Of a DNA stretch of 64,000 nt, positions 10,775-63,394 are shown in pieces. Made by a program: the position numbers and the translations under genes. The stretch is taken from contig NC_057746.1 of the NCBI RefSeq assembly GCF_004010195.1, positions 16,812,820-16,876,819 of the forward strand, in the 5' to 3' direction. The stretch is from Chiloscyllium plagiosum. Lineage: Eukaryota. How positions within the stretch are numbered: the first letter of the stretch is position 1; each line of letters opens with the position of its first letter. The notes under the pieces are model-generated. The model saw only the letters and a program-made list of their open reading frames with translations, did not search any database and was not told the origin of the DNA.

Positions 10775-11545
10775 TTGTCGAGAGTGTGATGCTGGAAAAG
10801 CACAGCCAGTCAGACAGCATCCGAGGAGCAGGAGGATCGAAGTTTCGGGCAAAAGCCCTCGATGAGGAATGAGACTATTGTGTCTGTTAATTAGGCATGT
10901 GATCCATTTGCCAGACATTTATCAGTGTGGCCCAAGACCTCAGTTCGAATATCCCGAGCCCTAATTACTGAGTGAAGCCTTTTTTACTGCCCTAGTTACA
11001 CAGCAGTTTCCCTGGAGACTGATTGAAGCTAATCATTGCCTTACTGTGGTATAAACGGTCTAACTGTAATATACATCATGAATCCATCTCCCATCCATGT
11101 CATGCCACAGTCTCAGACTCTCTGACTTCAAAAATGTTTCCCATGTTAAGGCTGCTATCAATTTATAAACTTCTTTGGGCAAACCTTCATTAAAGCAGGT
11201 AAACCACAGTCTGCAGCTCTCCTGTCTAACCTCCATCCCCACCCCATTCAACTACTGTACTCCTTGCTACCTTCCCCCACCCTCCTCTCTTACCTATCAC
11301 CTCCATCCCCAACCCTATTCACCTATTGTACTCTTTGCTACCTTCTCCCCAGCCCCACCGCCCCCACCCCCATTTATCTCTCCATCCCCAGAGACTTCCT
11401 GCCTCTATTCCTGATGAAGAGTTTTTTTCCCGAAAAGTTGAGTTTCCTGCTCCTCGGAATCTGCCTGACCTGCTGTGCTTTTCCAGCACCCACTCTGATC
11501 TAAACTCTGGTTTCCAGCATCTGCAGTCCTCACTTTTGCCTGTCT
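10775..11545. mobile_element. Penelope-like element relic: inverted terminal copy (10775-10870) and forward 3' end/pseudo-LTR (11200-11545)
   Basis: Contains the family consensus gctggaaaagcacagc..gtcaggcagcatcc..gagcaggag and its reverse complement, plus CTGATGA...CGAAA at 11411-11435. Confidence 0.7.
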
Positions 11546-12544
11546 AAGTCCAACACTCCACTCTTTTCTGCCCCCCCCTCACCGGGCTTTCATAGTCAGC
11601 CCCAAATCCTGCTAAAGTTTGCACTTTATGACCATTTAGTACCTTTCAAAATTCCTGGGTCAAAAAGACCTTTGGTCAATGGAGACCCAAACCCCAGATT
11701 CCCTTCATCCTACCTCTCTGTTGCTTCCACACAGGGCTGATCACAAGGTTGAATAAAACGTAGAATTCAGAAGAAGATTCACATGAGCTTTTTTCATTTG
11801 GCAATCAGATAAAAATCTGATTCTAAAGTCCTTCAAGTCATTTCAAAAGTTCAAAGAAGGTGTGGTCAGATGCAATAAAATAAGAAAGGTTTACAGTCAC
11901 TCACAGTATTTGATTTAGTTCTTTCAAATTAGCAAGAAATTCCAACATAGGATTTTCCCAGGATTCTAACTGGTGAAGACTGTGCAACAATATGTCATTG
12001 CTGGAGATTGATATTAGTTTGTCTTTTTCAATGTGGAATGTGTTACAGCAATTTGACTTCCCTGAAACATCAGCAATAAAATAATTTATTTCACGATTTC
12101 ATTGTCTCTGTCCTTTGTTCAAGACACATCCTCTTGCTATAGAGAATATTTTGAGACTCTTACAGAGAGCTCAGATTTCAAAAGGGTAGAGATAGCTTTT
12201 CAAAACTGCTAGCATTCTTTGAGCAGGTGACTGGGAAATATAGTGAATGTAGAGCACATGGTCTTCAAAAAAACCTTGAACAAGTTACCACATAGATAAT
12301 TATCAGAGAAGTTAATATAAGAAATTTGCATTTGCTTTCAAACAAGAGAAACTTAACTGGAACATGATGTCCTTGGACATTCCAGCCCCTCATCATGAAT
12401 TCAGAACAAGAATGTAGATAGCTAATGGCAAGCAACCTTCAAGACTCTGTCCAGCTCTGCACCCCCCACACCACAAACCAGTGGCTGCCATCTTTGACAT
12501 TTCCAATACGTTCATGGAGAAGCAGGTCTCTCTGGTTACTTGGA

Positions 12545-13160
12545 CTGGGTGAATAGAAAAGTAGAAGATAGTAGCAGCCATAGGCCATTCGACCCTTCAG
12601 ACTTGTTCTGACATACAATCTGATCATGGCTAATCTTCGAGCTCAATACCCTAATCCTGCCTTCCCCTCATATCCCTTAATCACTTTAGCCTCTTTCTTG
12701 AAAACAAATAATGATTTGGCCTCAACCACTTTCTCTGGTAGTGAAGTCCAGAGGCTCATCACTCTGTAGCAAAAGAAATTTCTCTCAACTCAGTCCTCAG
12801 GAAAGGATAAGGCCCTTATCCTTAAACTATGCCCTCTTGTTCTGAAAACCCTACCATTGGGACATCCTTCCCACCCTTAATCTGACTAGTCCTGTTATAA
12901 TTTTGTAGGTTTCTATTGAATGCTCACTCATTGTTCGAAGCTCCAGTGAATAAAATCCTAACATACTCCTCATCTCTCCTCACACATCGGTCCTGCCATC
13001 CCAGGAGTCAATTAGGTGGGCCTTTGCTGCACTTCCTCTATAGAGAGAGTATTCTCCCTCAGATAAGGAGAATAAAACTGCATACAATGCTCTCAGTATG
13101 ATATCACCAAGGCACTGTACAATTGCAGCAGGACATCCCTGCCCCTGCACTCTTGTGGAC
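12545..13160 (-). mobile_element. CR1 LINE 3' fragment
   Basis: Reverse-complement CR1 3' region (gtagcagccataggccattcgaccctt...) with degraded RT C-terminal motifs. Confidence 0.75.
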
Positions 13161-13164
13161 ATAA

Positions 13165-14860
13165 ATAGTGATGTCTTCAAAAGAGTTCACTTTACAGAAG
13201 AGGAGGTGCTGAAAATCTTAAAATGCATTAAGGTAGATAATTCTCTGGGACCTGATTAATCACAAGACTTTGTGGGATTTTGGGGAAGAAATTATGGGAC
13301 CCCTAGCAGAAATATTTGTATCATTAAAATCCACGGATGAAGTGCCCAAAGATTGGAGGGTGACAAATGTTGTTCCATTATCTAAGAAAGGCTGCAAAGA
13401 AATGCCTGGGAACTACAGACTGGTGAGTTTAATGTCTGTGGTGGGTACATTGTTAGAGGGGATTCTGAGAGACAGAATCTAGAGGCATTTGGAGAGGCAA
13501 AGACTCATTTGGTATAATCATCATGACTTTGTACCTGGGAAATCATGACTCATGAACTTCATTGGCTTTTTTGAAGAGGTGACAAAGAAAGTAGATAGGA
13601 TAGTGCAGTAGATGTTGTCTACATGGACTTTAACAAGGCTTTTGACAAGTTGTCACATGGTAGTTTTTTAAGTAATGTAAATTCTCACAGGATCCAGGGA
13701 GAGCTAACCAGTTGCATATAAACCTGGATTGATGGTAGAAGACAGAATGGTGGTAGAGGATTGTTTTTCAGACTGGAGGCATGAGACCTAAAGTGTGCCA
13801 CAGGGATCAGTGCTGGATCCACTACTATTCATTATTTATATAAATGATTCGGATGAAAATTTAAGAGGTATAGTTAGTGAATTTGCAGATGACACTAAGA
13901 TGGTGGTATAGCAGACAGTAAAGAAGGTTGAGTTATGGAAGGTGAAGTTTAATTTAGATAATTGCAAGGTGTTGCATTTTTGGTAAGGCAAACTAGAGGA
14001 GGACTTACACCATCCATGGTAGGTCCCTGGGCAGTGTTTCAAAACACAGACAACCAGGGGTACAGGTTCATAGCTCCTTGAAAATGGAGCCAGGTAAACA
14101 GGGTGGTGAAGAAGGCTTTCAACACACTTGTATTCAGTGGTCAGAGCACCGAGTACAAGAGTTGGGCCACCTTGTTAGATCTGTACAAGATGTTGTTGAG
14201 GCCATATTTGGAGTGTTGAGTGCAGGTATGGTACCTACTATAGAAAGGATATTATTAAATTGGAAAGAATGCAGAAAAGATTTACTAGGAAGCTATCCGG
14301 ACTGGAGGGTTTGCGTTATAGAGAGATTAGATAGGCACTGAGGAGTGGTCTTACAGGGGTGTATAAAATCATGAGAGAAATAGAAAGGATAGATAGCCAA
14401 CAGCTTTTCTCTGGGGTTGGGGCATCCAAAACTAGTGGGCATGGATTTGAGGTGAGAGGGGAGAGATACAAAATAGTCCAGATGGGCAATTTCTTTCATA
14501 CAGGGGGTGAAGAGTGTTTGAAATGGGATGCCATAGGTCATGGTGGAAGCAAGTACAATTTTTATCATTTAAGAAACATTTAGACAGGTACATAGATGGG
14601 ATCTTAGCCTGCTGGACAAACTTTCCTCATTCCTGAAGAAGGGCTTATGCCCGAAACGTCGATTCTCCTGTTCCCTGGATGCTGCCTGACCTGCTGTGCT
14701 TTTCCAGCAACACATTTTCAACATAGATGGGATAGGTGTGGAGGGACATGGACCAAATACAGGCAAATGGGACTAGTTTAAACTGTGAAACCTGGGCAGC
14801 ATGAGCAAATTTGGCCAAAGGGACTCTTTCCATTCTGTAGACCTCTATGACTCGATAACA
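13165..14860 (+). mobile_element. Degraded CR1 LINE RT region to 3' end, carrying a Penelope-like insert
   Basis: VPKDWRVTNVVPL..KKG..PGNYR, gtgccacagggatcagtgctgg (VPQGSVL), FADDTK, YKIMREIERIDSQ; ctctatgact tail. Confidence 0.85.
14603..14720 (+). mobile_element. Short Penelope-like insert with minimal hammerhead core (14633-14660)
   Basis: 13-bp TSD acatagatgggat (14590-14602 / 14721-14733); core CTGAAGA-a-GGGC ttat GCCC-GAAA-CGTC. Confidence 0.75.
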
Positions 14861-21367: not shown

Positions 21368-21567
21368 GGAGAAAGTGAGGACTGCAGATGCTGGAGATCA
21401 GAGCTGAAAATGTGTTGCTGGAAAAGGGCAGCAGGTCAGGCAGCATCCAAGGAGCAGGAGAATCGACGTTTCGGCTATTCCAGGAGAAGGGCTCATGCCC
21501 GAAACGTCGATTCTCCTGCTCCTTGGATGCTGCCTGACCTGCTGCGCTCTTCCAGCAACACATTTTC
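21368..21567. mobile_element. Palindromic Penelope-like insert (inverted pseudo-LTR pair), mutated hammerhead core
   Basis: Long inverted arms gctgaaaatgtgttgctggaaaag...aatcgacgtttcgg / ccgaaacgtcgatt...ttccagcaacacattttcagc; 16-bp TSD agcc(a/g)acgacaaatga at 21352-21367 / 21568-21583. Confidence 0.8.
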
Positions 21568-22184: not shown

Positions 22185-22233
22185 ATGATTGGACTAATAG
22201 TGCTGGGGCTTCTGTGGGGAGAGGTCTCTTCAG
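22185..22233 (+). CDS. MHC class I copy B exon 1 (signal peptide)
   Basis: ATG ATT GGA CTA ... TCT TCA G|gtgagt; hydrophobic core; paralogous to 48232 and 52972. Confidence 0.85.
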
Positions 22234-24718
22234 GTGAGTAGTGCGGGGAATGAGGGAGGCGGTACCGGGCGGATTGGACACTGGGGCATTAGTCCTCAGG
22301 CAATGTGTAATGGGAGTAGGGGGCAATGATCGGCTAGGTACTGAGCCTTAACCTTGGAACCTGTTACTGTTGGAATGGTTTACTTGGTATCTGACTTCAT
22401 CTTTTAACACATTTTTGATTGTAAAAAGAGTACAATTGTGAACTTGCAATCTAAAGAGACTTTGAAGGAGCTGGAATCTGTGTTGAAAACAACAAATACT
22501 GGAGATCACAGGAGGTCAGGCAGTATCCATGGAGTGAAAGTCATCTCTACTCGAAATGTTAGTTTGCCTTTTCTTTTGCTAGCGCTAGATAATATGTTTG
22601 AAAATGTCTCCTCAAACTTCCATTTCTACCATTACATCATTTTTCTTATGCTATAGATTGTTTTATCTATAGTAGACAAAGGTTTGAGTGGTTTCTATCC
22701 TGGAAGACAGAAGATGAGCTAAAACATGTGCTAAATGCTGGCTTTTACTCCTAATAAGATCAAGTGTGCCTGTCGGGTGTGCTTGAATAATTAAGTGTTA
22801 GTCTTTTTGTCTTTTACGTTAGTAAATGTTAATAACAAATACAAGGCCCATATGCTTTAAATAAGTTAGAAATTGTACCTGTATTTAGTAAAAGAATAGA
22901 GGATATTAAACTGATTACTGCAGCTGGGTTGTGAGATTTGTTTACTATACTTACTGAGTTTTGTTTATTCATGTAATTTCATGGAAGCACAATTTTTTTT
23001 TCTCAGTTAAGGTATGGTGGCTCTGATGAAAAGTATTCAACAAGTACATACTAATTGGGGAAAATGTTTAGTGTTCTGCAATCTGTTCAGGTCTGAGAGA
23101 CAGTTGGTCAGGGCTGATTAATTTTATAATCTTTCCATAGTTTCAGGTATGGCAAGGATGATATTGTTCTGAGTAGTAGTCTTTGATATTTATTCTGAGT
23201 TAAATAAGTCTAAACACTACATGTAACAAATGCTGATAAGAATTGAAGGTGTGAAGAAACAGGAATGGTTGAAAGGGCTGTTCTAATTAGAAAGGGTTGT
23301 TTTAATTTGGTTGATCTTGTTAAAATATACTATAAAACTGTGGTTTTATGAATGAATGAAATCATGTTATAGTAAATAATGGGTGAATAAAGCATTATGA
23401 ATGAATGAACAAGAACCTGGTATTAATGAACATTGCAAGTTGGTGAGTGACTTAATAAAGATGACCTATAATACAATATTTCACAAGGTTATAGTTGTTG
23501 GTGAATATGCAGTCTAAATATTATTTGCCACTTATCTGCCCAAACCTGAATGTTACATATGCAGTCTATATACAAATGCAGCAAGACCTCAGTATCTGGG
23601 GAGTTGTGAATAGGGTTGATCATTGTACAATCATCAGACAACATCCCCACAACTGGCCTTATGATGGACGAAAGGCCAGTTATTGAAGCAGCTGAAGATG
23701 GCTAGGTCTGGAAAATGAGGAACCACTGCAGTAATGTCCTGGAACTGAGGCAACTAACCTCCAGTAACTACTGCCACCTTCTTTTTGAATGAAGTATGAC
23801 CCCAACCAGTGAAGAGATTTTCCCTGAGTCCCATTGTCTCTAATATTGCCTAGGCTCCTTGATGCCACACTCAGTTAAACGTAGCCTTGACATCAACAGC
23901 CATCAGTCTCACTTCACCTCTGGAATTCTGATTTTGTGTCTATATTTGAACTAAAGCTGTAATGAAATGAGGAGCTGAGTGGTACTGGCAAAATACAAAC
24001 TGACATTTTTGTGCACAGAACTTATCTGAGCAATTTTTCACATTGCTTGGTAGGTGCAAGTGTTGTTGTTGTATGAGGACAAATTGGTATGGATGCAACT
24101 CATTCAGGAGCACAGGTCTTTAGTACAAATGCTGGAATGTTGTCAGAGTCCATAGCCTTTTCAGCATCCAGTGTTTTCAGCCATTTGTTTATATCACATG
24201 GAATGGATGGAATTGGCTGAAGATTCGAATCTGTAATGTTGGGGACCATAGCAACAGGCTGTGATAGATCATTTGCTTGACCATTCTGGCTGAAAGAAAT
24301 TGCACACGCTCAAGATTTGTCTTTGTGCTAGCCGTTTCCATCAATGACCATGGAGGTATTAATGCAGCCTCATCCTCTTGATTCCTGTTTAATTGTCAAC
24401 TGCCACTCACAACTGGATGAAACCAGGTTTACAGAGCTTCAATCTGATCTATTTGTTGTGGGTTTGATTGATTCTCTTCTCTCGCGCGAGCACGCTCTCT
24501 CTCGAGCTCTCTCATTAAACCATTGTTGTGATCCTAAATGAATGTACTACTGACATGTCAAATCTCAGAATGAAATTTGACATGATAGCTCATTGTCTCC
24601 CGTTCTTGTGCAGTTAATGCGTTGATTATCACTGAGACGAATTCACAGAGGCTATGACTCTTCTTTAACAAAACAATAGCACTTCACTACACAATAAGAA
24701 ATAAAATATTTCTTATTG

Positions 24719-24832
24719 GGCGTGGGCGGCACGGTGGCACAGTGGTGAGCACTGCTGCCTTGCAGCGCCTGAGACCCGGGTTCAATTCCTGCCTCAGGCG
24801 ACTGACTGTGTGGAGTTTGCACGTTCTCCCCG
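24719..24832 (+). mobile_element. 3'-truncated HE1-like SINE head flanked by a 65-bp direct duplication
   Basis: A box tggcacagtgg and B box ggttcaattcc; identical flanks at 24644-24708 and 24833-24897. Confidence 0.85.
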
Positions 24833-24994
24833 CACAGAGGCTATGACTCTTCTTTAACAAAACAATAGCACTTCACTACACAATAAGAAATAAAATAAGA
24901 AATAATATCTAAAGATAGAAGACAAATAGATCTCTAAACACACAGTAAACAAATCTTTTCAAATTGTTTCCTGACACCGTCCATCGTAAAAACT

Positions 24995-25225
24995 GTGAGG
25001 GGCAGTTTTTTTACACAGAGAGTGGTAGGTGTCTGGAATGCACTAACATGGGTGATGGTGGAAGCAGATATAATAGGGGCATTTAAGAGACTTTTAGGTA
25101 ACCATGTAAATATGCAAGAATATCAACCAATGGCAGGCAGAAGAAATTAGTTTAATTTGGCATTGGGTTTGGTCCAACATTGTGGGCCGAAGGACCCGTT
25201 CCTGTACTGTATACTTCTATGTTCC
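24995..25225 (+). mobile_element. CR1 3'-terminal fragment
   Basis: ttttttacacagagagtggtaggtgtctggaatgcact...gggccgaaggacccgttcctgtactgta..ttctatgttc tail. Confidence 0.75.
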
Positions 25226-25654
25226 ATCTTGTTGCCTTCTGTCCAACATGGAAGGAACTTTTCAAATTCATGAATCTAATGGCTTGGCCTCTGACCTTCA
25301 GGTGAGCTGAAAGAGCACACACAGAAATGTTGGTAGAAAAGGCCAGTAAGGAGATGATGGAGTTTGGAAACATGCAGAGGTATATATTTTGGCAGAAAGC
25401 ACGAGGGAAAAAATAAATGATGTCTAAACCCCATGCAGGAGTAGACATTGGGATCGGAAACATCATTGCAGGTTGGGGAGTGAGGGCAAGTTCAGAGAGT
25501 GCTTAAAGTGGCAGATGGGATCCTGGGCTTTACAAACACAGATGTTGAGTGTTAGAAGAAGTCAACCTAAGTGTTCAATTGGAGGTTTGTAATTGGTGTT
25601 TAGGGATTCATGTCCTGATGTTTTTTTTTCTCTCACTCTCTGTCTCTCTTTCAG

Positions 25655-25915
25655 ACATTCACTCTCTCCGGTATGTTATCACTGGTTTGACTCCGATAAC
25701 CGGTTTCCCAGAGTTTTTGATTGTTGGTTATGTTGATGGCATCCAGTTTGTTATGTACAACAGCGATCAGAAGAAGTTGATCCCCTGGGAACAGTGGATG
25801 GTGGAGAGTGAGGGACCTGAGGCCTGGAAGCGGAAACTATTCCTTGCTCGGGAGCAGGAGCTGTCCTTCAAAAATGATATTCATAACTTAAAAGTAAAGA
25901 CCAACCAAACAGACG
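25655..25915 (+). CDS. MHC class I copy B alpha1 exon
   Basis: (D)IHSLRYVITG...GFPEFLIVGYVDGIQFVMYNSD...EQWM..EGPEAW...TNQT; 261 nt, phase 1-1. Confidence 0.9.
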
Positions 25916-26125
25916 GTGAGTTTTCCCTCTCCACCTGCTCAACATCTTCCTGTGTGATCAGGAAATGTCAGTGGAAATCTGAAGAAACCAGGAGTGGATC
26001 AGGATCTGTCACCAGCCCTGATTAGCTCTGGTTGGTGACCTCCCACTGACACTTTATGGTACCTTATGCTTCTGATTGACAAGGATGATCGTTTCTGACT
26101 GGCAGCTTGTGTTTCTGATTGACAG

Positions 26126-26399
26126 GAGTCCACACACACCAGATGATGACTGGCTGTGACCTGAGGGATGATGGGACTGCGAGTGGGTTCAACCAATATG
26201 GGATGGGATGGACGAGATTATATCAGCTTCGATAAGGATCTTATGGTGTGGGTGACTCCGGTACCCTGGGCAGAAAGCATCAAAAACAGTTGGGATCAGG
26301 ATGTAGTGGACAAGCAGCGGTGGAAGCATTACCTGGAAGTGGAGTGTATTGAATGGCTGAGGAAATACCTAGAGTATGGACAGAGAGAACTGACAACGG
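26126..26399 (+). CDS. MHC class I copy B alpha2 exon (frameshifted)
   Basis: GVHTHQMMTGCDL...NQY, frameshift, then GWDGRDYISFDK...W...YLEVECIEWLRKYLEYG. Confidence 0.85.
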
Positions 26400-26529
26400 G
26401 TGAGTGTGGAGGAAGCCTATGCAGTGGGGGTTGGTGTGTGAGAAGGGAGTGAGAATTGGTGGAAGGAGTGGTGCCTGGGACTTTGTACATTGTGGTTCCT
26501 GCACTGATTCCTCTTCCCTTTTCTCGCAG

Positions 26530-26793
26530 TTGCTCCCATCGTGTCCTTTATCCGTCTGGGTGATTCCAACCGGCTGTCCTGTCTCGTCACTGGGTTTTAC
26601 CCACAAGCCATCGAGGTGATTCTGCGGAGGGATGGAGTGTTGATCGATGAGACCCTGTCCACTGGGATCTTACCTAATCACAACAGGACCTACCAGATCC
26701 GGAAATGGGTGGAGTTTGATCCAGAAGATCACGTCGAGTATTCTTGTCAGGTAGAGCACAGCGGGCTGGAAGAAACGCTGGTGGTGATTTATG
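26530..26793 (+). CDS. MHC class I copy B alpha3 exon (C1-set Ig)
   Basis: LSCLVTGFYP...ILPN..TYQIRKW...YSCQVEHSGL; 264 nt. Confidence 0.9.
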
Positions 26794-27209
26794 GTAAGAC
26801 TATTTCTCACTGTCAGAGAGAAATCAGACTCAGACCAGGATCTTAGAAGAGAGGGTGAGTGCTGAGCGTTTTCACCAGAACAGCCCAGGTTAGAAACAGG
26901 AACAATATATAGAAAGGGGCTCACATCATTTATAGGAAACAGTAATCAAGGCAGTTGCTCCTGGGAAGTACGATATAACATATATCAGTGTATCATGGTA
27001 TATTAGAGTTCAAAAGCATTGGGTATATGCTGAGATATAACAGAATGACAAGATCTGATGTGCTGCAGTTAAGTGTCACTCACTGTATCTGGTGATACAC
27101 AGTGTCATGGCACCCAATGTATCCTGAAACAAAATGCCCATTCAAATACCTGGCATATCCAGGAATATTACCGTATTAAAGTATACGGTACATTGTAAGT
27201 CACTTTTGA

Positions 27210-28104: not shown

Positions 28105-28308
28105 AGGAGGGGGTGATTCTCCACTACCATCCCCCCAACCTCACCACCCTTTCGCATTTATCTCTTAGCCACGCCTCCCCTCCCCTGCCCCCGTCCCAGC
28201 CCTGGACCACAAGCCTCATTCCTAATGAAGGGCTTATGCCCGCAACTTGGATTCTTCTGATCCTCGGATGCTGCCAGACCTGCTGTGCTCTTTCCAGCAC
28301 CACACTCT
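28105..28308 (+). mobile_element. Penelope-like 3' end insert (mutated hammerhead core)
   Basis: 12-bp TSD caacttcattga (28093-28104 / 28309-28320); empty paralogous site at about 60620-60640. Confidence 0.75.
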
Positions 28309-52355: not shown

Positions 52356-52444
52356 TAAACTCGGTTTGAATTCCAGATTTATTTTGAATTCAATTTGCTG
52401 TCATTAGGGAGTGCAAACCCATGTCTGCAGATCATTAAAAACTG

Positions 52445-52600
52445 AAAGAATTGTAGATGCTGTAAATCTGAAACAAAACAGAAGTTCCTGGAAAAGCTCA
52501 GTACGTCTGGCAGCATCTGTGAACTGAAACGTTAACTCTGATTTCTCTGCCCAGATGCTGCCAGAGCTGTTGGGCTTTTCCAGCAACTTCTATTTTGTCC
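52445..52600. mobile_element. Degenerate palindromic Penelope-like insert (older subfamily; similar copies at about 22490-22580, 39950-40100, 47095-47185, 53428-53512, 63250-63385)
   Basis: Inverted arms gcagatgctg...ctggaaaagctcag / ctgccagagctgttgggcttttccagcaacttc. Confidence 0.6.
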
Positions 52601-52774
52601 CGCATCATTCGCCTGCCATGAGAAACTCTGTGACATCACCACTAAGTCACCATCTCTAATGGAAGATTACACTTAAAAATGTCTGCTCTAACAGTCTGTG
52701 AATATTGGCATAATTGGAGCTTTGGGGTGTAAGATTGTGATTTTTAACTTTCAACATCAGTGGGCGTCTGTTCC

Positions 52775-52971: not shown

Positions 52972-53020
52972 ATGATTGGACTGTTAGTGCTGGGTCTTCT
53001 GTGTGGAAACCTTTGTGCCG
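52972..53020 (+). CDS. MHC class I copy D exon 1 (signal peptide)
   Basis: ATG ATT GGA CTG ... TGT GCC G|gtaagc. Confidence 0.85.
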
Positions 53021-56000
53021 GTAAGCAATGTGATATGGGGGTTGGTGGTGGTGTCAAGCTGGGTACGGACCTTGACTACTTCCGCAGATGAAGCTGAAAG
53101 CGAAACGTGAAATTTCTCCTTCCCCTGAAAATAGGTTAACAAAATGCCTTCGAGAAAGCTTCTCTTTATATCATGATCTCATGTTTTAAAAATTTCCATT
53201 CAGCCTAACTGGTACTAAAACTCATCGAATAGCCCGGTTTATACTGGATAGGCCTTTATGAATGGTGATCCTTTTGTGATAAAGGAAGCTGTTATTCATG
53301 TTTGCGAGCGCACTTCCCCATCTCTAATAAATCAGAACTCAACAGATTATTTCCAAAGTTGATTGTCGTAGAATACTTCAGCAATGCCCCATTCTTTACC
53401 CTATTTACCAAGTTTATACATTACAAAGGGAAAGTGAGGACTGCAGATCAGAGTCAAAACCTGTAGTGCTGGAAAAGTACAGCAGGTCAGGCAGCATCCA
53501 AGGAGCAGGAAATGTAGAGTACAGAACGGACACAGACCCTTCGGCCCACTTGACCGTGCTGACCAGGTTTCCTGAACTGAGCTCCTCCCACTTGCCTATG
53601 GTTGGCCCAGACCTCTCTAAACCTTTCCTAACAATGTACTTGCCCAAATGTTTCTTTTAATGTAGTAATTGTAATGACCTCCCACTTAGGTTACGTAGAT
53701 TGGCCCTTAAGTGTCCAGAGATGTGCAGGCTAAATGTATAGGCATGGAAAATGTGGGATTGTGGGAATATCGTGATGGATGGGTCTGGGTGGATTGCTAT
53801 TTGGAGGGTCAGTGCAGACTTCATGGGCCAAATGGCCTCTTCCTGCAGTGTAGCGACTCTGATTCTATCAAATGTGCAGAAAGTGATTTCTGGAATGTCT
53901 CCTGTGTTAATCGCAAACTGGATTCTTCTTGTCATCTTCACTTATGAAAACAACCAGACTGCTAATGTAAAATAAAATAACTTAACCTATGCACCCCTCA
54001 ATTCCCTGCTATCCATGTGCAACTCCAGCAGTCGCTTAAATGTCCCTTATGGCTCTGCTTCCACCACCACTGCTGGCATTCCTTTTTGTGTAAAGAACCT
54101 TCCTCTGATGTCTCCTCTAAACCTTTCTCCTAATATCTTAAAACTATGACCCCTCATGCTAGTCAATCCTGCCCTGGGAAAAGTCTCTGGCTATTGACTC
54201 TATCCATTCCTCTCATTATCTTATATACCTTGATCAGGTCACCTCTCTTCCTCTTTCTCTCCAGAGAGAAAAGTCCGAGCTTCATCATCCTCTCTTCATA
54301 AAACAAGCCCTCCAGTCCAGGCAGCATCCTGGTAGACCTTTGCACCCTTTCCAAAGCTTCTGTATCTTTCCTAACATCTACCTGGTCTATGACAATGGAT
54401 TAAATCACTATTCCAGAAGACTTGCTGACCTTTCATTTCCAAAGCCCTCAAGTTAACAACACCCATGTACCTCTATTTTGAAATCTGAACTCAAAACTGT
54501 TATGAATACAATATATACAAACTGTACCTTTCATCATACCAGGGTTGACCCTTAGATTGGTAATTGGTAAAGTAGTTGATATGATAAGCCATGAGGTTTA
54601 TAGATGTTCCAGCTTATAGTTTTAAGTACTTGGAGTCAAACAAAATGGAAACCGACCCTTCAATCCAACTCAAAAATGCCAATCAGGTTTTCCAAACTAA
54701 AGTACTGCCAATTGCTTGCATTTGGCCCATATCCCTCTAACCTTTTCTATTCATGTCCCTGTCCAAATGTCTTTTAAATGTTGTAACTATACCTGATTTT
54801 TCTTCTTTATCTGGCAGTTCATTCCACATGTGAATCACCCTGTGTGGAAAAAGTAGCCCCTCCAGTCCCTTTCAAATCTTTCTTGTCTCAGCTTAAAATT
54901 GTCCTTGAGTTTTGAATTCCCCTACCAGAGGGAAAAGACATTTGCTCTTCGCATCATGATTTTATAAACCTCTCTAAGGTCATCCCTGAACCTCCTCTGG
55001 TCCAGACAAGAGTTCCAGCCTTTCCTTAGACCTCTAGACCCTCTAGTCCCAGTAACATCCTTTGTAAATCATTTTTGCACACTCTCTCCAATTAGTTTAT
55101 ATCCTTCCTCTAGTAGGGCAACCAGAACTGCATACAGTGTGCCAAAAGTGGCCTAACCAAAATCCTGTATCGCCATAACATGATGCCCAACTCCCATACT
55201 CAATCCTTAGACAATGTCTTCTTCACTACCCTGTCTATCTGTGATGCTACTTTCAATGAACTATGTAACTGCATTCCTAGGTCACTCTACTCAAGAACAC
55301 TCCCAGGATTCACTATTAATGGTGTAAATCCTGCCCTTGTTTGCCTTACCAAAATATCTTGCCTCACATCTATCTGGCTTAAACTCCATCTGCTAAACTT
55401 CAGCCCACTGGCCTAGGTGATCAAAATCCCATTGTACTGTTAGATAACCTTCTTCACTATTCATTAAACCATCAATTTTGGTGTCATCTGCAAACTGAGT
55501 AACCATGCTTCCTGTGTTCTCATCCCCAATTCCTGAAGATCACTGTTCTGCTGCTGATGGCATACAGTGCCTCGTTGGATATCTTGTTTTCCTCTTTGCT
55601 GACTGGCTTAGATTTCAAACAAAGTGGTCATATCACAACAGAGTGGTGGGTGTTCTTAATGTGAAGATAGAAATTCAAGGTTTTAAAGGTTTTGTTTCAC
55701 TCTCCAACTCCAAATTTCCAGTATAAGAATATGTATATATAAGAAATATATGCCACTGTTTCATGGTACAGAATTGAAGTACTGTTTGTAAAAAATAAAA
55801 CAAAAAAAGTTCAATTCAACAGAACTTGCTCATACATTTCTTTGGTCAAGGCATAGATCATTGGCCTATGAGAATTAACCTGGCTTGATTAATAACTTAA
55901 AGCTTTGATGTGAATTGTCAATCTGTATTACTGGATGCATTCTCCATAGTCATAGCCTTATCTACCTCTAATATCTGACATCATCTGCCTGTTATCCATA

Positions 56001-59000
56001 AATTTTGATGTCCATGCAGATCAAAAACTCAGCTTGAAATGTTATCATGTCCCTGGACCATTACCAAGTGCAAACATGGTACACCCCCTTCTGTTCAAAA
56101 AGATGACTTTGCTCCATGTTAAAATATTTGTCACAAATTGCATGACTTATAAGATGGCCAAGTTGGGGAATCTTCACAGTGGATTGCAGAGGGAATTGAG
56201 GGAGACAGTTTCTCATCTTCATTGTATGGAAATATGGAAAAAAAACCTCAAAACAAGAAGAGCTCAGACCCTGGTCTCTGAATCTGACTCAGCAACAAAA
56301 CCGACATATTGGAATGTGTTGTGATGACAAAGGTGCTAAAACTATCAATCAGCAAAGACTTGTTCCATGGATTTGACTGAGGATATATAACCTCCTTTGT
56401 GATTGTGAACAGTTTGTTTTGGACCATCCTTTGTTCTGTTGATGGGAGAAAGTGAGGGCTGGAGATCAGACATAAGAGTGTGGTGTTGGAAAAGCACAGC
56501 CGGTCAGGCAGCATCCGAGGAGCAGGAGAATCGACGTTTCGGACATAAGCCCCTCATTCCTGATGAAGTGTTTATGCCCGAAACATCAATTCTCCTGCTC
56601 CTTAGATGTTCCCTGACCGGCTGTGCTTTTCCAGCACCATGTTCTCAACCCTTTGTCCTGTTGTTGGCCAGTTTCATTTGACAGAAATTCCTCTTTGATT
56701 TTTGGAGACCTTTAATAACACATTCTGAACTTCTGAATCAGTCTGTTCCCACTGGCCAAGAAAAATAACAAACTGTCTGGGTTAACAACTAGAACTGCCT
56801 GAAAGTTAGAGCCTCAACCTTTTTCTTCTGAAGAATCTAGAATTAATTTGAAAAACAAACTGTTCCTCTACTTACAAAATTGTGAGAAACTGCCATTTTC
56901 ATCCTGCTGCCTCCTCACTAACCTGGAAGGAATTCTTAGAATTCTTGACTTAAGTTGTTTGGTCTCTGACCTTCAGGTGAACTGATAGAAAACACACACA
57001 CACACACAATGTTAGTGGAAATGGCCATTAAGTGGCTGATGAATGTGAGTATTGAGAAGTGCAGAGTTATACATTTTAGCAGGAAGAAGGAAGAAAAACA
57101 AAATAAACCATTAATTTTTCAATCCTGTGCAGGAACAGACCAGGAGTTGTAAAAGTCATTGGAAGATTCGGGACTGGGGGACAAGTTCAGAAGGTGGTTA
57201 ATGTCACCAGTGGGAACCTGTGCTTAATAAACACAGGTGCAGAGTGTACACAGAAGTTTCCCTCCATGTTTAGTTGGAGTTTTTGTGATTGGTGTTTAGG
57301 GATTCATGTCCTGACATCTCACTCTCTCTCTCTCTCTCCATTTCAGACACTCACTCTCTCCGGTATTTCTTCACTGCTATGACTCCAGTTCCTGCTTTCC
57401 CGCAGTTTGTGATTGTTGGTTATGTGGATGGAGTCCAGTTTGTTACGTACAACAGTGATCAGAAGAATTTGATCCCCCGGGAACAGTGGATGGTGGAGAG
57501 CGAGGGGCCTGAGGCCTGGAAAAGGAAACTATCCCTTGCTCGGGAGCAGGAAAGGAATTTCAAAAACGCTGTCCTGAGCTTGAAGTCACGAAACAACCAA
57601 ACAGATGGTGAGTCCTCCCTCTTCAAAAGCTTGACAGTTTCCTGTGTGATCAGGTTTCGGTGAGAATAGAAAGAAACCAAGAGTGGATCAGAATCTCTAA
57701 CCAGAGCCTGATTTTCTGTGGTTGGCACCTCCCACTGACAGTGTCTGGTAGCTTTTGTTTCTGATTGACAGGGATGACTGTCTCTGATTTTCTACAGAAA
57801 ATGGCTGAGTAGGATACTTCAGGCAGATTTCCTCTGTTCTGTCTTTTCCTTCTCTTCAGTGTTTTTTATTAAACATTTGCTCAGAGGGGAATGACAGAGA
57901 CAAGTCCCGGACAGGAGGCTGGTGTGAGGAGGAGATGTCCTTGCAGACTGGCAGTGAGGCCTTGAGTTTTGAAGCTTGGTGCTGTTTGGAGACTTTGCCC
58001 TAAGCAGCCTGGAGGCTCGGTGTTGGCAAAGACTGAGGTGAAAGGATTGTAAATAGTGTTTTTAATCTTAGATTTTTTTTAGATTACTTACAGTGTGGAA
58101 ACAGGCCCTTCGGCCCAACAAGACCACACTGACCCTCTGAAAAGCAACCCACCCAGACCCATTCCCCTATATTTATCCCTTCACCTAACACTACTGGCAA
58201 TTTAGCATGGCCAATTCACCTAACCTGCACAATTTTGGAATGTGGGAGGAAACCAGAGCACACGGAGGAAACCCACGCAGACACAGGGAGAACGTGTAAA
58301 CTCCACACAGACAGTTGCCTGAGGCAGGAATTGAACCCGGGTCTCTGGCACTGTGAGGCAGCAGTGCTATCCACTGTGCCGCCCACCTGGATTTTTATTA
58401 TTGTTTCATTTTTGTACCCAAATATTAAGTATCTATAGATATTTTGTACCTAACGTAGTGCCAGAAGTGGTGACATTGCAAACTTTTCACTGCATTTATT
58501 CGAATGCATGTGACAAGAAAGCTAATTCAATTCAATTTGATTGGCAACTTGTGTTTCTGATTGACAGGGATCCATACGTATCAAATGATGACTGGCTGTG
58601 ACCTGAGTGATGAAGGGATGACAAGTGGATTCAACCAATATGGATGGAATGGACAAGACATCCTCAGCTTGGATAAAAATCATATGGTGTGGGTGACCCC
58701 AGTCTCCTGGGGAGAAAGTATCAAGAACAGGTGGGACCAGGATGTGGTGGACAATCAGCGGTGGAAGCATTACCTAGATGTGGAATGTGTTGATTGGCTG
58801 AAGAGATACTTGGAGTATGGACAGCGACAACTGAAAGTCGGTGAGTGTGGGGGGAGCCAGTAGGCAGTGAGGAGGGAGTGAGAGTCTTTGAAGGGTATGG
58901 TGCCCTGGCAGTGTATCTTATCATTCCTGCAGTGATGCCTGTTTCTGTCTCCCTTAGTTCCCCCTGATGTGTCCTTTACCCGTCTGGGTGATTCTAACTG

Positions 59001-62000
59001 GCTATCCTGTCTCGTCACGGCGTTTTACCCACAAGCCATCGAGGTGACTCTGTGGAGGGACGGAGTGTTGATCGATGAGACCCTGTCCACTGGGATCTTA
59101 CCCAATCACGACATGACCTACCAGATCCGGAAATGGATAGAGTTTGATCCGGAGGATCAGGCTGAGTATTCCTGTCAGGTGGAGCACAGTGGACTGGAGG
59201 AGACGCTGGTGATAATTTATGGTAAGACCATTTCTCACTGTCAGAGAGGAGCCAAACATAAACCAGGATTACAGGAGAGGGGATCAGTGCCGACCTGCTT
59301 CATCAGGACAGGGGCTCACATCATTTCTTTTTAGAAAACCGTAATTGAGGCCGTTTTCTGATACCCAGGTGCTCTTAACCTGCTGTTATATTCTGGGATA
59401 TAACAGAATGATAGGACCTGTTATATTACAGTGTATTATCATTGTGTACCAGGGATACTGCAGTACAATGGCATTAGTGTATCCTGATGTATAATGCCAT
59501 CCAACACCTAACATATCAGGAATATTACAGAATTAAAGTCCAGGGTGCACTGTGTGATTATTGGGTGGCATGGGACCACAGTGGTTAGTAGTGCTGCCTC
59601 ACATTGCCAGGGACCTGGGTTCATTTCCAGCCTTGGATGTCTATCTGTGCGCAGTGTGCTTGTTCTCCCTATGTCTGCATGGGTTTCCGCGTAGTGTTCT
59701 GGTTTCTTCCCATAAGCCAAAGATGTGCAGGTTAAGTGGATTGGCTGTGCTAAGTTGTTCCTTTTAGAATGTGTAAGCTAGGTGGGTTAGACATTGGTAT
59801 GTGGAGTTACAGGGATGGGTAATGGGATGGATGCTCTATGTCGAGTTGATGTAGACTCAATGGGTCAAACGGCCTCTATCTGCACTGCAGGAATTCTGTA
59901 ATTCTGTGATTATGGTATGATGTTGTAGCCTCTCCGTTTGCCAAATTCATCCAAGCCCTTTGGACAGCTTCCAAGCTCTCATCCACTTCACCAAGAAGGA
60001 TATGGGCAGTACTTACAGGGGAACAGTACTTCCTGTGAATTCTCTTCCAAGCTATTCGCCATCCTGCTTTGTAAATATATTACCATTCATTTAGTGTTGC
60101 TGGGTCAAAATCTTGAACTCCTTTCGTAACAAATTTGTAATTCTACCTTTAGCAGTTCAAAACAGCAGCTCACTGCCATCTTCTCAGTGGCAACTGTGAA
60201 CGGGCAATAAATACTGGCCCAGCTACTGATGCCCATGTTTTGTGTGTTATGTTTTCACAGCCCAAAGGTGTGCAGATGAGGCAAATTATGCTAAATTACC
60301 CAGAGTAACCAAGGATGGGTCTGGGTGGGATGCTGTTTGGAGGGTTGGTGTGGACCTGATGGACCAAATGGTCACTGCCCACATTGTAGAGATTCTATAT
60401 TTTGTTACATGACAGTCCAATGTATCCTGGGATATTCATGTCCAACAAGATGTAGTATATCCTGAGAGATTATGGTGTGGTAGCATCCAGTGCATTCTGG
60501 AATTATAGCTCCATCTATATAACATGGTTTTAAAATATTTTTGTGATGCTAAGAAATCTTCTATTTTTGATTTAAATGAAATCAAACAAAGTCAGCATAG
60601 ACTGAGAGGAAATATTATGGTTGACCAACTTCACTGAAGTTTTTCATGTGGGATCAGACTCGTAGCAGTAATTTTATGTATGTATTTTGTGCAGGTTTTT
60701 AAAAAACATATTAAATACTTCCATAACAGAAGAATAAATTCATTCAGAGAATGTGGAAAGAGTGGAAATGTCGTGAAATTAATTGTTGGGTGGTTTCAAG
60801 ACAAGAAACAGATCTGGAAATAATGGATTGTTAGAGCTTCAAGATGCAGGAATTAATGTTCCACAAGGACGAGTGATAGAAACATTGCTGATCACAATTT
60901 CCAAGAATGACCTGGACTTTGGAATCATGAAATCCCAGATTGCCCCCTGTGTCTTCACTGGATTTCTGAAATGATTCTGAAATTAATGATTCAGCATCAT
61001 TTACTGTCTTTTTCCAATAGAATTTAAAATCTTCTTTATAAATGTAAATTTAGAATTAACTTTCCATTTTCATTTACAGATAGCAACAACATGCAATCTC
61101 AAGAAGTCAAGTTTCATGTATTCTAACACAATCCTTGGGAATAGGAGACAGCAGAACCAAAATCTCACAGGAGGCACATGCACACTTGGCCAGACTGCTG
61201 AGTGTTACACTGGAATAATCTAATCAGTCAGTCATTCTGCTGATCAAAATACAATTCCTAAATTTGCAGATGACACCACATTGGGGGATAGACCAAACTC
61301 GTGAGATCTGTAACAAGTTACAAGAAAAAGTACTAAATGTTAAAATGAACAAGTTATTGGCAAATGAACTGGAGGAACAAAGAGATCCTGAACAAAAATA
61401 TACACCAGTTACGAAATGTTTTTCCACAGGTTAGCAAGGTCGCAAATCAAAGCATGCAATATAATTATCTAGAGAGGGAACTAGTTGGTAGGTGATGCTA
61501 AATTAATCTTGAAGTGTGATTGACTCCACATATGGAGTACTGCAGATAGTTGTGATCACCATATAGAAAAGATATTGAGACATAAGAGAAGATGCAGAGA
61601 AGATTGACAATGATGATATCAGAAATGTGAGAGTATACATATCAGGAAAGAATTGACATGCTGGATCTCTTCTCTCTTGAATAATGGAGACTGAAGAGTG
61701 ACCTAACAGAGACTGTAACAGTAGGCAATAGCAAATTGAGAAGAAGCTTCTTTGGGTAAAGAGTGGTGGGAATGTGGAACTTGAAGGCACAGGAAGTGAA
61801 AAAGGAAAGTAGAAGGAAATAGAGGGAAACAAAGAGAGATTTAGTTGAGGAATACTGGGAGGAACCTCCTAATGGTCGGTCTCTCTCTCTCTCTCAGTCC
61901 CGACATCTCGTTCCCAGGTTCCCATGACTGTCGGGATTCTACTTGGGGTCCTTGGGATCGTTGCTCTTGCTGTTGCGGCTTTCTTCATCTACAAGAAGAA

Positions 62001-62975
62001 AGGTAGGAGTTTATGAAAAAGTGGCAGCTCCTCCCTGGGAATTCAGGGGGTGGAGAGCCTGAAGAGGGGTTTCCCACAGTAGGGTTCAGGGCCCAAGGTG
62101 TGTGCGCACGCGTGTGTGTGCATGTGCGCGACAGATGGGGGAAGACCCTCTGTGTTTGGAGGTTGGTCTCAAGGCTTTACAGGAGCTCAGGCTGTGGGGA
62201 GAAGGCCTCAGTTTGTGAAGCAAGATAGGAGATGGAACCCTGTTCCTTAGGGTAGGTAGGAGTACATGTAGGTTCTCTGGGTACATATGAGTGTAAAGTC
62301 ATTTCAGATTGTGGATGACTGTCAGTTTGGTGTTGGATATTAGCGGCTCAGGGCAAATTTAATAATGAAGGACTGAGCCTGGATGTGAGCGTGGATCTTG
62401 GGTACCGGTCAGGGTGAGAGCCTTGGGTAGGTGTCTCATTGGGAATAGTGGTCTCAAGAGGCTTCATGTCCATCGCTCCCTTTCTTTTGGAGTTTCCACC
62501 TCTCTCTGTTCTGTGATTCAATGGCTCTTTTTTTGGGTCAATCACCTAAATATTCCTTGTTTTTGCAGAGAAAGTGAAGAATGGCTACGATCCCACAAAC
62601 AGTAAGCTGATAATTTGGACATTTCTGGATCTCTATTATTGTGAAACTAACTCTTCTTTTTGTGTTAGATGGATATAATGGCTTGTTTCTATGTCTGTGT
62701 GTTATACACTGTCTCCCTATATCTTTCTTTCTTTTCTGTCTGTTTTGATCTCTGTACCTGCTTCCATTGTGTCTCTGGTCTGGGTATATTTATCCACCTC
62801 TCTGTGAGTATTTATCACACTTCTTTTTCCCCTCTGTCTGTTTCCCCTTCACACACTCCTTCTCTTTGTCTTGTGTTCTGTCACAGTATCTCTGATAATG
62901 AACAGTTTTTTAATGCCTCTTTTTCCATTAACAGCTGATGATAGGACACCCTCAGACGGTTCTACCAATACCTAA
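52972..62975 (+). CDS. Non-classical MHC class I heavy chain, copy D; intact 7-exon gene, 341 aa
   Basis: Exons 52972-53020 (MIGLLVLGLLCGNLCA), 57347-57607 (alpha1), 58568-58840 (alpha2), 58958-59221 (alpha3), 61898-62002 (TM), 62569-62601 (EKVKNGYDPTN), 62935-62975 (TDDRTPSDGSTNT*). All introns are phase-1 GT-AG, total 1026 nt, open frame. Both disulfide Cys pairs and the N86 glycan site (NQT) are conserved. Confidence 0.92.
53096..53106 (+). promoter_or_regulatory. ISRE-like element in intron 1 of copy D
   Basis: GAAAGCGAAAC matches GAAANNGAAAC. Confidence 0.4.
53510..55520 (-). mobile_element. Cluster of minus-strand CR1 3' fragments (about 53510-53690, 53985-54375, 54640-55520) with a SINE fragment (about 53700-53860, +)
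   Basis: ORF 54163-54354 MLPGLEGLFYEERMMKLGLFSLE..RGDLIKVYKIM; reverse-complement CR1 3' UTRs. Confidence 0.75.
56446..56649. mobile_element. Palindromic Penelope-like insert with CTGATGA hammerhead core (56560 onward)
   Basis: Inverted arms; 18-bp TSD with 2 mismatches (56428-56445 / 56650-56667). Confidence 0.78.
57347..57607 (+). CDS. MHC class I copy D alpha1 exon
   Basis: (D)THSLRYFFTAMTPVPAFPQFVIVGYVDGVQFVTYNSD...EGPEAWKRKL...RNNQTD. Confidence 0.92.
57790..58537 (+). mobile_element. Retroelement insertion in intron 2 of copy D, with a nested minus-strand HE1-like SINE (about 58070-58386)
   Basis: 5-bp TSD tgatt (57785-57789 / 58538-58542); (attca)n tail; absent from intron 2 of copy B. 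Confidence 0.7.
58568..58840 (+). CDS. MHC class I copy D alpha2 exon
   Basis: GIHTYQMMTGCDL...QYGWNGQD...IKNRWD...HYLDVECVDWLKRYLEYG; 273 nt. Confidence 0.92.
58958..59221 (+). CDS. MHC class I copy D alpha3 exon
   Basis: (V)PPDVSF...LSCLVTAFYPQAIEVTLWRDG...YSCQVEHSGL; 264 nt. Confidence 0.92.
61898..62002 (+). CDS. MHC class I copy D transmembrane exon
   Basis: (V)PTSRSQVPMTVGILLGVLGIVALAVAAFFIYKKK. Confidence 0.9.
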
Positions 62976-63394
62976 GATACGAGTAGTGTTGGTCAAAAGT
63001 GAGAAGAATGTTGTAACTGGGAAATTGGAGCTGGTGTTAACTGCAATCCGAAGGGTGAACGCTGAGCTCTGTGACTGTCTCCCTGCTGTCAAAAAAGACC
63101 AGCTCATATGGTTCAACACTGAACTTTAAGACTTACCTTCTGGAAATAGTTGCTACAGTATGGGCCTGAGCGTTAAGATATATTGGAGGTGGGGTTTGGC
63201 ATAGAGAAATATCTCAAAACTACTTATTGTGGATAAGATAAAATAAAAAAAACTGCAGATGCTGGAAATCTTGAATCAAAAGGAAGCAGAAATTGCTGGT
63301 AAAACTCCACAGGTCAGGTAGCAAGTGTGGAAAGAGAGCAGATTTAACGTTTTGGGTTCAGTGACCCTTCTTGGGAACTGAAGGTTTTTAAAAA

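Follow-up and report, generated by a model that had tools for sequence, protein, structure and literature searches.

The window, a 64,000-nucleotide stretch of Chiloscyllium plagiosum DNA, holds two MHC class I genes and 19 arms of a short repeat, distributed over 14 loci from 10775 to 63385. The arms were recovered by nhmmer with a profile built from 12 window arms (E 8e-34 to 3e-5), while the same profile gave a best E of 0.69 in five shuffles and no match in the reversed window. An initial annotation had described about 13 copies of one repeat bearing hammerhead motifs; the number agrees with our 14 loci, and the motifs are present where that annotation had placed them. The copies are indeed related, but the profile search divides the arms into two families instead of one. 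Family 2 (39973, 52452 and 63240, probably joined by the short 22495 fragment) is older than family 1, and its helix II and helix I, readable at 63375 only, both differ from those of family 1. In the list below, arm coordinates such as +87 and +123 are counted from the first core base, and fold-backs, having arms on both strands, carry no single strand.

22185..30473, plus strand: MHC class I gene A, with leader, alpha1, alpha2, alpha3 and TM exons (Pfam MHC_I and C1-set)
52972..62002, plus strand: MHC class I gene B, whose frame stays open across all exons, leader to TM (Pfam, exon map)
10775..10878, minus strand: family 1, one arm with the short 3' end; its core at 10865 is decayed, with G5 and G16.2 lost (nhmmer E 9e-29)
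11230..11538, plus strand: family 1, longest copy; its core at 11411 is decayed, and its tailed long end reaches +118 of the unit
14603..14720, plus strand: family 1, a short-ended single arm whose minimal hammerhead core, at 14633, is intact (descriptor match)
21368..21567, no single strand: fold-back whose inverted arm (+19..+123) bears the tail and whose direct arm (-10..+87) has the mutated core 21481 (arm alignment), about 600 nt upstream of the leader exon of gene A
22495..22534, minus strand: old coreless fragment, probably family 2, antisense in intron 1 of gene A (nhmmer E 2.6e-5; exon map)
28105..28308, plus strand: family 1, a short-ended single arm in gene A's alpha3-TM intron, with the dead core 28222
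29350..29533, no single strand: fold-back in the alpha3-TM intron of gene A (hairpin z-score -13.6); inverted arm -3..+123 with tail and a core at 29477 with a helix II mismatch; direct arm ending at about +34 with intact core 29500
38697..38880, no single strand: fold-back in which inverted arm +47..+123 carries the tail and direct arm 0..+87 the intact core 38792 (arm alignment)
39973..40095, plus strand: family 2, old decayed copy (nhmmer E 3e-8)
47092..47207, no single strand: family 1, decayed minus-strand arm with short end; inverted arm is the tail alone, +98..+122
52439..52606, no single strand: family 2 fold-back without a CUGANGA box
53427..53513, minus strand: family 1 coreless arm +30..+123 with tail, antisense in intron 1 of gene B
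56442..56649, no single strand: fold-back in intron 1 of gene B (exon map); the tail is on inverted arm +3..+122, and direct arm -7..+89 holds the broken core 56560
63245..63385, minus strand: family 2 arm with the long end; its decayed core 63375 has a distinct helix II and may form a helix I of 4 bp (nhmmer E 6e-6)

The window copies stop at two discrete 3' ends, +86 to +89 and +118 to +123, which lie about 37 nt apart and define the tail. Two matching piles of loose ends, at 29350-53 and 29392, were seen when 78,583 DNA contigs and 2,168 RNA reads were aligned to the unit, and the flanks beyond these piles are unrelated and AT-rich (agreement of 0.33-0.50 in five of six tail-end rows, runs X21 and X1). 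The 5' side behaves differently, as arm comparison found no boundary common to the window copies. Most copies begin within 30 nt of the core, all 14 are shorter than about 310 nt, the length of the longest, and no ORF sequence is left in any of them. Single-arm copies extend 30 to 180 nt further upstream, the longest carrying about 180 nt of C-rich sequence (11230..11538) and 28105..28308 about 117 nt; these two upstream parts align weakly, with 1.3% of shuffles scoring equally. Upstream of the 29477 arm, 153 reads run on with common sequence (agreement 0.68), which corresponds to the 5' portion of the 14615 copy.

The roughly 200-bp, ORF-less inverted-repeat hairpins of the initial annotation are found at six of the 14 loci (21367, 29350, 38695, 47092, 52452 and 56446), the other eight being single-armed; the copy at 28105 is not among the fold-backs, and the hairpins are asymmetric. 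The tail is confined to the inverted arm, which bears the long end in all six fold-backs, and neither arm is contained in the other. The inverted arms break at +19, -3, +47, +3, +98 and +46, giving six fold-backs with six centres. Since each fold-back has its own centre, there is no fixed palindromic non-autonomous element of the kind that the initial annotation had envisaged, and the different centres, the non-nested arms and the longer single arms are as expected of 5'-truncated insertions. Features of a fixed SINE- or MITE-like structure, namely a constant 5' boundary, centre and duplication length and symmetric ends, are all lacking in these copies.

Target duplications of 9 to 16 bp flank six of the 14 loci. 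They measure 9 bp at 11230..11538 (11221-11229 and 11539-11547; 5% of random spans score equally), 13 bp at 14603..14720 (14590-14602 and 14721-14733), 16 bp with one mismatch at 21368..21567, 12 bp at 28105..28308, 15 bp at 38697..38880 and 14 bp with one mismatch at 56442..56649. Five score at least 11, a score that 1 of 150 random spans attained, and at the remaining eight loci, 10775..10878 among them, no target duplication exceeded chance. At 29350..29533 the duplication is absent or at most 3 bp, and the right junction shows a 6-nt microhomology spanning the predicted cleavage site. The arms of two fold-backs with target duplications remain very similar, being identical at 70 of 72 positions in 21368..21567 (GAAACGUC, predicted to be fully paired) and across 38 nt in 38697..38880, where the filler between the arms is duplicated helix-II sequence.

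To characterize the core we used a minimal-hammerhead descriptor (CUGANGA, optional bulge, helix II, GAAA, pairing 15.2-16.2, UH). It matches exactly three window sites, 14633, 29500 and 38792, and none in 100 shuffles, in keeping with the minimal hammerhead proposed initially. A helix I of about 2 bp, also proposed, holds at 14633 and 29500, where the 2 bp are followed by a U-U mismatch and one A-U pair, but 38792 has 1 bp. Family 1 falls short of the 4-5-bp helix I of typical minimal hammerheads, while family 2 may have 4 bp. The sites listed as variants (11411, 21481, 28222, 56560) are present but have lost catalytic or helix positions: core 28222 carries G5>A, A13>C, G16.2>U and a G at position 17, and core 56560 has a broken helix II (predicted probability 0) and G16.2>A. 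The common DNA variants of the core are of the CpG-decay type. Core 14633 is the only intact one that combines a 2-bp helix I with the absence of an inverted arm, and its helix II is predicted with a pair probability of 0.94-0.99, against 0.18 for core 38792. The segment 38780-38840, suggested initially as a cleavage construct, thus has the 1-bp helix I and is predicted to misfold via the duplicated helix-II segment.

Two of the checks proposed with the initial annotation turned out negative. Helix covariation among 11 window arms was 0.105 against 0.102 in shuffles (191 of 500 shuffles as high), in a test of low power with neutral decay and only one alignable family-2 core. Rfam covariance models returned no hammerhead at gathering score in the window and none at E up to 10 around 14633, where five chance matches of other kinds appeared. 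Unconstrained co-folding of two 14633 motifs did not yield a dimeric hammerhead fold, a result that says little because energy models do not score hammerhead cores.

The proteins of a putative parent element were sought in the window and beyond it. None of the 120 ORFs lying upstream of arms on the element strand, from 617 window ORFs of at least 45 aa, matched any Pfam family, RT and GIY-YIG included. The ATG of a frame that runs open through the tail lies about 20 nt beyond the cleavage site; for the putative N-terminal peptide (21354-21473, minus strand), three candidates were returned, none reaching E 0.1, and atlas matches were all below 0.9. One phmmer match of this peptide (E 4e-4), to a 308-aa protein that is repetitive internally and shows neither an RT nor a GIY-YIG family, was taken as chance. 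Scans with the motif gave no match in each of the non-eukaryotic genome, viral and metagenome contig collections, and within the literature on Penelope in shark genomes and on A-to-I editing, a scope that leaves Repbase and Dfam outside, we found no published description of these families. As the RT/GIY-YIG partner was not found, membership among Penelope-like elements (PLEs) rests on the anatomy.

That anatomy is closely matched by known systems. Insertions of endonuclease-bearing PLEs are described with 5' truncation, an adjacent inverted copy, a 30-40-bp tail at one end (bioRxiv 2021.04.23.441226; PMC3846280; PMC8969392) and duplication-free microhomology junctions (PMC3846280; bioRxiv 2021.04.23.441226). 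The window copies show the same variable 5' truncation with fixed 3' ends, a head-to-head inverted truncated copy at six of 14 loci, a tail of that size and short target duplications of variable length; they differ in duplications of up to 16 bp, against about 8-10 bp in those sources, and in having no ORF sequence left. The minimal hammerheads of metazoan PLE pseudo-LTRs share with ours the conserved boxes, the one bulged base before helix II (9/10.1), G10.1-C11.1 and the loopless palindromic 15.2-16.2, and they too occur mostly as dispersed single motifs from truncated elements, with several families per genome (PMC4209133). Our helix II has 4 bp and our helix I 2 bp followed by U-U, whereas schistosome motifs have 7-8 and 4-5 bp; for Drosophila virilis, too, a helix I of 2 bp has been reported (PMC4209133). 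Hosts named in the text consulted include fish, coelacanth, frog and reptiles, with cartilaginous fish not among them. Poseidon PAc of the green anole is alike in its hammerhead near the pseudo-LTR 3' end, two RT start sites, AT-rich targets and RNA-seq reads that, in the account given there, do not end at the cleavage site, but its ORF begins in hammerhead stem II and not downstream of the cleavage site as our open frame does (PMC11167929).

We consider it likely that the 14 repeats are dead, heavily 5'-truncated pseudo-LTR stubs of two Penelope-like families and not a self-standing mobile element. Of the non-autonomous, ribozyme-bearing Penelope derivative proposed initially, the Penelope-type origin and the inverted pseudo-LTR are retained on anatomical grounds, while the separate non-autonomous family is not. 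On this reading a GIY-YIG endonuclease would nick both target strands 9-16 bp apart, and RT would start on pseudo-LTR RNA at either internal site, about +87 or +123, and stop after 25-300 nt. Where both nicks prime, two short cDNAs would be joined head to head, often with filler, giving a fold-back with a one-arm tail. The two-nick priming is inferred from in vitro data on another species: in the anole, both strands are cut and extended by the Poseidon protein, and two internal start sites define the tail (PMC11167929). The hammerhead would be inherited from the parent's pseudo-LTR and decay once inserted.

Other origins were weighed against this one. One is a dedicated non-autonomous donor, either a solo pseudo-LTR or a short RNA resembling a retrozyme, which would have its own transcription and rely on PLE proteins for insertion in trans, fold-backs still arising at that step. 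It would explain why every copy is so short and most start so close to the core, as well as the extreme abundance of the unit (78,583 contigs in one run). In a rotifer, pseudo-LTR sequence alone can drive trans insertion (PMC3846280), and non-LTR retrozymes, reported also in one cartilaginous fish, have been proposed as PLE derivatives (bioRxiv 2026.07.22.740005). With the longest copy at only about 310 nt, a truncated full-length RNA is indistinguishable from a trans-mobilised short pseudo-LTR RNA. Such an RNA should nevertheless leave a shared 5' boundary, which the window copies lack, and no position was found in reads or contigs where many molecules start or stop; two copies, moreover, reach 117 and 180 nt upstream. 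Animal retrozymes resemble our copies in being non-coding, in their type I hammerhead and in their kinship with PLE pseudo-LTRs, but they are head-to-tail tandem units with a ribozyme each, whereas the copies here stand alone or head to head, between target duplications (bioRxiv 2026.07.22.740005). None of the 14 tandem-repeat rows in the window holds a head-to-tail array of the unit, and we regard this origin as unlikely. Chance resemblance to a hammerhead in the end of another retroelement (a LINE 3' UTR or a SINE) is very improbable. LINEs also show variable target duplications and 5' truncation, and our searches found no PLE protein, but the target-bounded copies lack a poly(A) or simple-repeat 3' end, and a pair of fixed 3' ends separated by 37 nt, of which the inverted arm has the longer, is described as a PLE signature.

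The palindromes of about 200 bp without an ORF might instead recall a MITE-type DNA transposon with long terminal inverted repeats, the origin that the initial annotation had itself set against its reading. The probability of this is negligible, contradicted as it already is by ends that differ by a 37-nt tail, duplications varying from 9 to 16 bp, a centre that differs in every copy and one-armed structure at eight of 14 loci. A regulatory role of the intronic copies, in which they would tune expression by cleaving MHC class I pre-mRNA as ribozymes, is barely credible in our view and draws on three sense-strand intronic cores. The copies noted at 28105, 29350 and 56446 do lie in MHC-I introns with the core on the sense strand (Pfam and exon map), and core 29500 is intact in sequence. 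The self-cleavage suggested initially is nonetheless countered by the cores themselves: 28222 and 56560 are broken at catalytic positions, and 29500 is predicted to pair completely with the inverted arm of its locus, with an unpaired probability of 0.00 over both boxes and no second free core nearby to form a dimer. Two of the three copies (28105 and 29350) sit in gene A, in which a +1 frameshift in alpha2 (exon of 274 nt versus 273 in gene B) stops the spliced frame, and both are missing from the paralogue, which holds a single target copy without element near 60624 and an empty site at 61231/61232. Metazoan PLE hammerheads, furthermore, do not cleave as monomers (PMC4209133), and the anole hammerhead requires the element's protein (PMC11167929). 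The MHC-I intronic copies are thus predicted not to cut their RNA.

As it stands, the truncated-stub reading matters little, adding a further vertebrate genome in which PLE stubs bearing minimal hammerheads abound, a kind described in 2014. Tens of thousands of short, target-bounded insertions are nevertheless good material for the origin of PLE inverted arms and tails and for hammerhead cutting in vivo. At the cleavage site (29450/29449), poly(A) single-cell reads pooled family-wide, from libraries that seldom keep such ends, showed no end pile-up and no depth step. It is rather improbable that the minimal hammerhead cuts element RNA in vivo, that the 29500 direct arm ends at the cleavage site because self-cleaved RNA was its template, and that host ADAR edits A14 and A15.1 in the dsRNA of very many fold-back stubs; were this true, the long-open function of PLE hammerheads could be read from insertion ends alone.

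From run X22, of the same sample as X21, none of 8,328,510 reads aligned, and this run carries no weight as a test. Family-wide RNA reads from one run, pooled across the whole family without matched DNA, displayed a strand-biased A-to-G excess that includes core A14 and A15.1 and is suggestive of ADAR editing. Palindromic 200-bp repeats (Harbinger) are ADAR substrates in frog, and Penelope is named among massively edited repeats in lizard (PMC5625713); the palindromic form is the likeness, while our signal comes from that single pooled run. The capacity of fold-backs to form dsRNA, as initially suggested, is supported by these arms. Because the fold-back hammerhead is predicted to be locked in a long hairpin, host RNA is likely to be affected by dsRNA and A-to-I editing rather than by self-cleavage, and the fold-backs are a probable large intronic source of edited dsRNA.

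A DNA profile built from 12 arms (copies of the repeat unit) was used to search the window and returned 19 arms at 14 loci; the best E value in five shuffles was 0.69 and the reversed window gave no match. A minimal type I hammerhead descriptor matched the cores at 14633, 29500 and 38792, against none in 100 shuffles, and motifs are present where the initial annotation had put them; Rfam models did not detect the motif in the window. Ten of the 14 loci form family 1, while an older family 2 occupies 39973, 52452 and 63240 and probably includes a 40-nt fragment at 22495. The families have a downstream stretch in common and differ in their ribozyme helices where these are readable.

Counted from the first core base, arm 3' ends fall into two classes, +86 to +89 or +118 to +123, about 37 nt apart (the tail). 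Six of the 14 loci are head-to-head fold-backs, and the long end sits on the inverted arm in all six. The inverted arms break at +19, -3, +47, +3, +98 and +46; therefore, all six centres differ. Each fold-back arm carries sequence absent from the other, and the centre of the locus starting at 38695 is filled with duplicated helix-II sequence. Single-arm copies extend upstream of the core by 30 nt (14615), 117 nt (28105) and 180 nt (11229), and the last two have a C-rich stretch in common in a weak alignment (1.3% of 300 shuffles equally good). Direct repeats of 9, 13, 16, 12, 15 and 14 bp border six of the 14 loci and were not found at the other eight. Five of the six score at least 11, which random spans reach in 1 of 150, and the 9-bp repeat is borderline (8 of 150 as good). 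In the paralogous MHC gene, the empty site for 28105 has the target once and that for 29350 is a clean gap at 61231/61232.

The arm at 29351-29481 (core to tail) and its flanks were compared with four public runs at 90% likeness. The DNA run X1 yielded 78,583 matching contigs, a contig count and not a copy number. One X1 contig spans the left junction of the 29350 copy with zero differences, indicating that the organism behind X1 has the insertion too. Among the best 18 of 482 loose-end entries, ends accumulate at 29350-53 (tail end) and 29392 (short end), with mostly unrelated, AT-rich sequence beyond; these piles are both 3' ends at very many loci. RNA reads past 29481 have a common sequence (153 reads, agreement 0.68) that corresponds to the 5' portion of the copy at 14615; the element therefore extends beyond this arm.

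By their anatomy, the repeats are most likely insertions of a Penelope-like element (PLE). In the excerpts cited, PLE insertions have 5' truncation, a neighbouring inverted shortened copy and a 30-40-bp tail at one end, and the window copies are alike in 5' truncation, inverted truncated neighbour and one-ended tail (bioRxiv 2021.04.23.441226, PMC3846280, PMC8969392). The Penelope superfamily assignment of the initial annotation was most likely correct; membership is argued from insertion anatomy, because the searches that follow linked no RT or GIY-YIG sequence to the repeat. Pfam families matched 0 of 120 ORFs neighbouring arms, the motif had no match in three non-eukaryotic contig collections (genome, viral, metagenome), and no credible protein match came from a 40-residue frame that crosses the tail. 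In the 21367 arm (21354-21447, minus strand), a frame that begins with an ATG some 20 nt beyond the cleavage site is open through the tail. Families 1 and 2 resemble each other in its first ten codons, where several differences fall at third positions. This frame may mark where the parent ORF begins, since pseudo-LTRs of other PLEs include first codons. In both long copies (11350-11392, 28150-28197), a pyrimidine tract that ends in CAG lies some 20-25 nt before the core and resembles a 3' splice site; in D. virilis Penelope, an intron is described as ending beside the hammerhead (PMC4209133).

In the portion of PMC11167929 on the anole Poseidon protein, both target strands are cut and extended, AT-rich DNA is preferred, and reverse transcription begins at two internal sites, with the tail equal to the distance between them. 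From such published PLE biology we infer that both nicks would prime reverse transcription, each start site would yield one cDNA, and the two cDNAs would be joined at their truncated ends into a head-to-head fold-back. Alternatively, a self-priming fold-back, proposed in a section of PMC3846280, would make the junction, although alone it leaves the sequence unique to each arm unexplained. Short pseudo-LTR RNAs may also be mobilised in trans. The separate non-autonomous ribozyme element previously proposed was an overstatement, since neither arm lies within the other and all fold-back centres differ; the latter likewise leaves a fixed palindromic master element unsupported. A retrozyme array (tandem arrays of the window examined) and a MITE are also unsupported. 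The 29350 arms (29350-29533) differ at loop base 29464, which is about evenly split across the family in DNA contigs; two RNA templates for one insertion would fit, and a single chance mutation also fits.

The window cores have the bulge, G10.1-C11.1 and palindromic 15.2-16.2 of minimal hammerheads, of which thousands are dispersed in fish, coelacanth and frog; one schistosome example failed to cleave as a monomer and cleaved weakly as a dimer (PMC4209133, in part). The anole Poseidon hammerhead cleaves only with protein, is dispensable for insertion in vitro and leaves no ends in RNA-seq (PMC11167929, in the excerpt cited). In family 1, helix I has two pairs followed by a U-U mismatch and a third pair. 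Helix covariation, which the initial annotation had looked to, did not emerge from 11 arms (191 of 500 shuffles had pair counts as high), and the copies seem to differ by decay. CpG transitions account for several of the core-region variants that are common in DNA contigs. Only 14633 combines an intact core, a 2-bp helix I and no inverted arm, with helix II predicted at a pair probability of 0.94-0.99; the segment suggested earlier for cleavage assays, 38780-38840, is a poor substrate (helix I 1 bp, predicted helix II probability 0.18). The 29350 direct arm ends at about +34, and at its junction 6 nt of microhomology with the target begin at the predicted cleavage site. A self-cleaved RNA template would yield this end, which is one case; microhomology priming or repair would equally give it, and no loose-end pile marks this stop among the best 18 of 482 entries.

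The two MHC class I genes have the following exons, with AG-GT borders:
Gene A, plus strand, exons at 22185, 25655, 26126, 26530 and 30369
Gene B, plus strand, exons at 52972, 57347, 58568, 58958 and 61898

As originally described, three copies are intronic with sense-strand cores: 28105 and 29350 in the gene A alpha3-TM intron and 56446 in gene B intron 1. The proposal of self-cleaving MHC pre-mRNA went too far. The 28222 core carries G5>A, A13>C, G16.2>U and G17, helix II is broken in the 56560 core, which also has G16.2>A, and the 29500 core is predicted to pair along its whole length with the inverted arm (unpaired probability 0.00; hairpin z -13.6). The gene A alpha2 exon (26126-26399) is 274 nt versus 273 in gene B, so that the spliced frame shifts and meets stops; gene A is either a pseudogene or an assembly error. 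With two cores mutated, one predicted to be buried and the gene A frame broken, self-cleavage is unlikely. The dsRNA formation also envisaged is predicted for 29350 and 56446. A degraded third MHC-I copy at 7774-8560 retains remnants of alpha2 and TM and lacks alpha3, and an orphan exon resembling a leader (48232-48280) precedes the nearer leader exon of gene B by 4.7 kb.

In the poly(A) single-cell RNA run X21, of which about 2% was sampled, 2,168 of 12,955,460 reads match the 29351-29481 arm in both orientations, and 97% continue into dissimilar sequence, the pattern that read-through of dispersed copies should give; X22, from the same sample, had no matching reads. Depth declines smoothly across the predicted cleavage site (29450/29449) with no end pile-up, a weak test in such libraries. 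Among 40 of 45 variant entries, 11 variants exceed their X1 contig frequency at least 5-fold in reads of one orientation. Eight of these are plus-strand T>C changes, which under the usual strand convention would be A>G on the ribozyme-sense RNA. With T making up 23 of the 131 bases, the binomial p is 9e-5 (generous null, non-independent sites). The T>C sites include A14 (26/404 versus 2/287 reads; DNA 0.015%) and A15.1 (34/415 versus 1/297; DNA 0.04%), in a comparison where RNA and DNA are different samples, contigs lose rare variants, and reads are pooled over the whole family and not by fold-back or MHC locus. Enrichment also extends to three non-T>C places; private alleles of expressed loci therefore contribute. 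The A>G excess is suggestive of ADAR editing, already known for palindromic repeats in frog and Penelope in lizard (PMC5625713, in part).

The window also contains LINE-type RT and endonuclease fragments and a 7TM gene, the latter an intronless 320-aa rhodopsin-family GPCR frame at 1417-2379 (Pfam 7tm_1). LINE fragments at 37108-37479 (minus) and 40831-42189 (plus), which we take to be CR1-type, carry a GDSL/OSK-like esterase ORF1 domain and an exonuclease-endonuclease-phosphatase domain. A 236-nt unit occurs twice head-to-tail at 20179-20650 (identity 99%), either a recent duplication or an assembly artefact, and a decayed 39-nt minisatellite forms two blocks (49458-50036 and 51310-51467) with a LINE fragment between.
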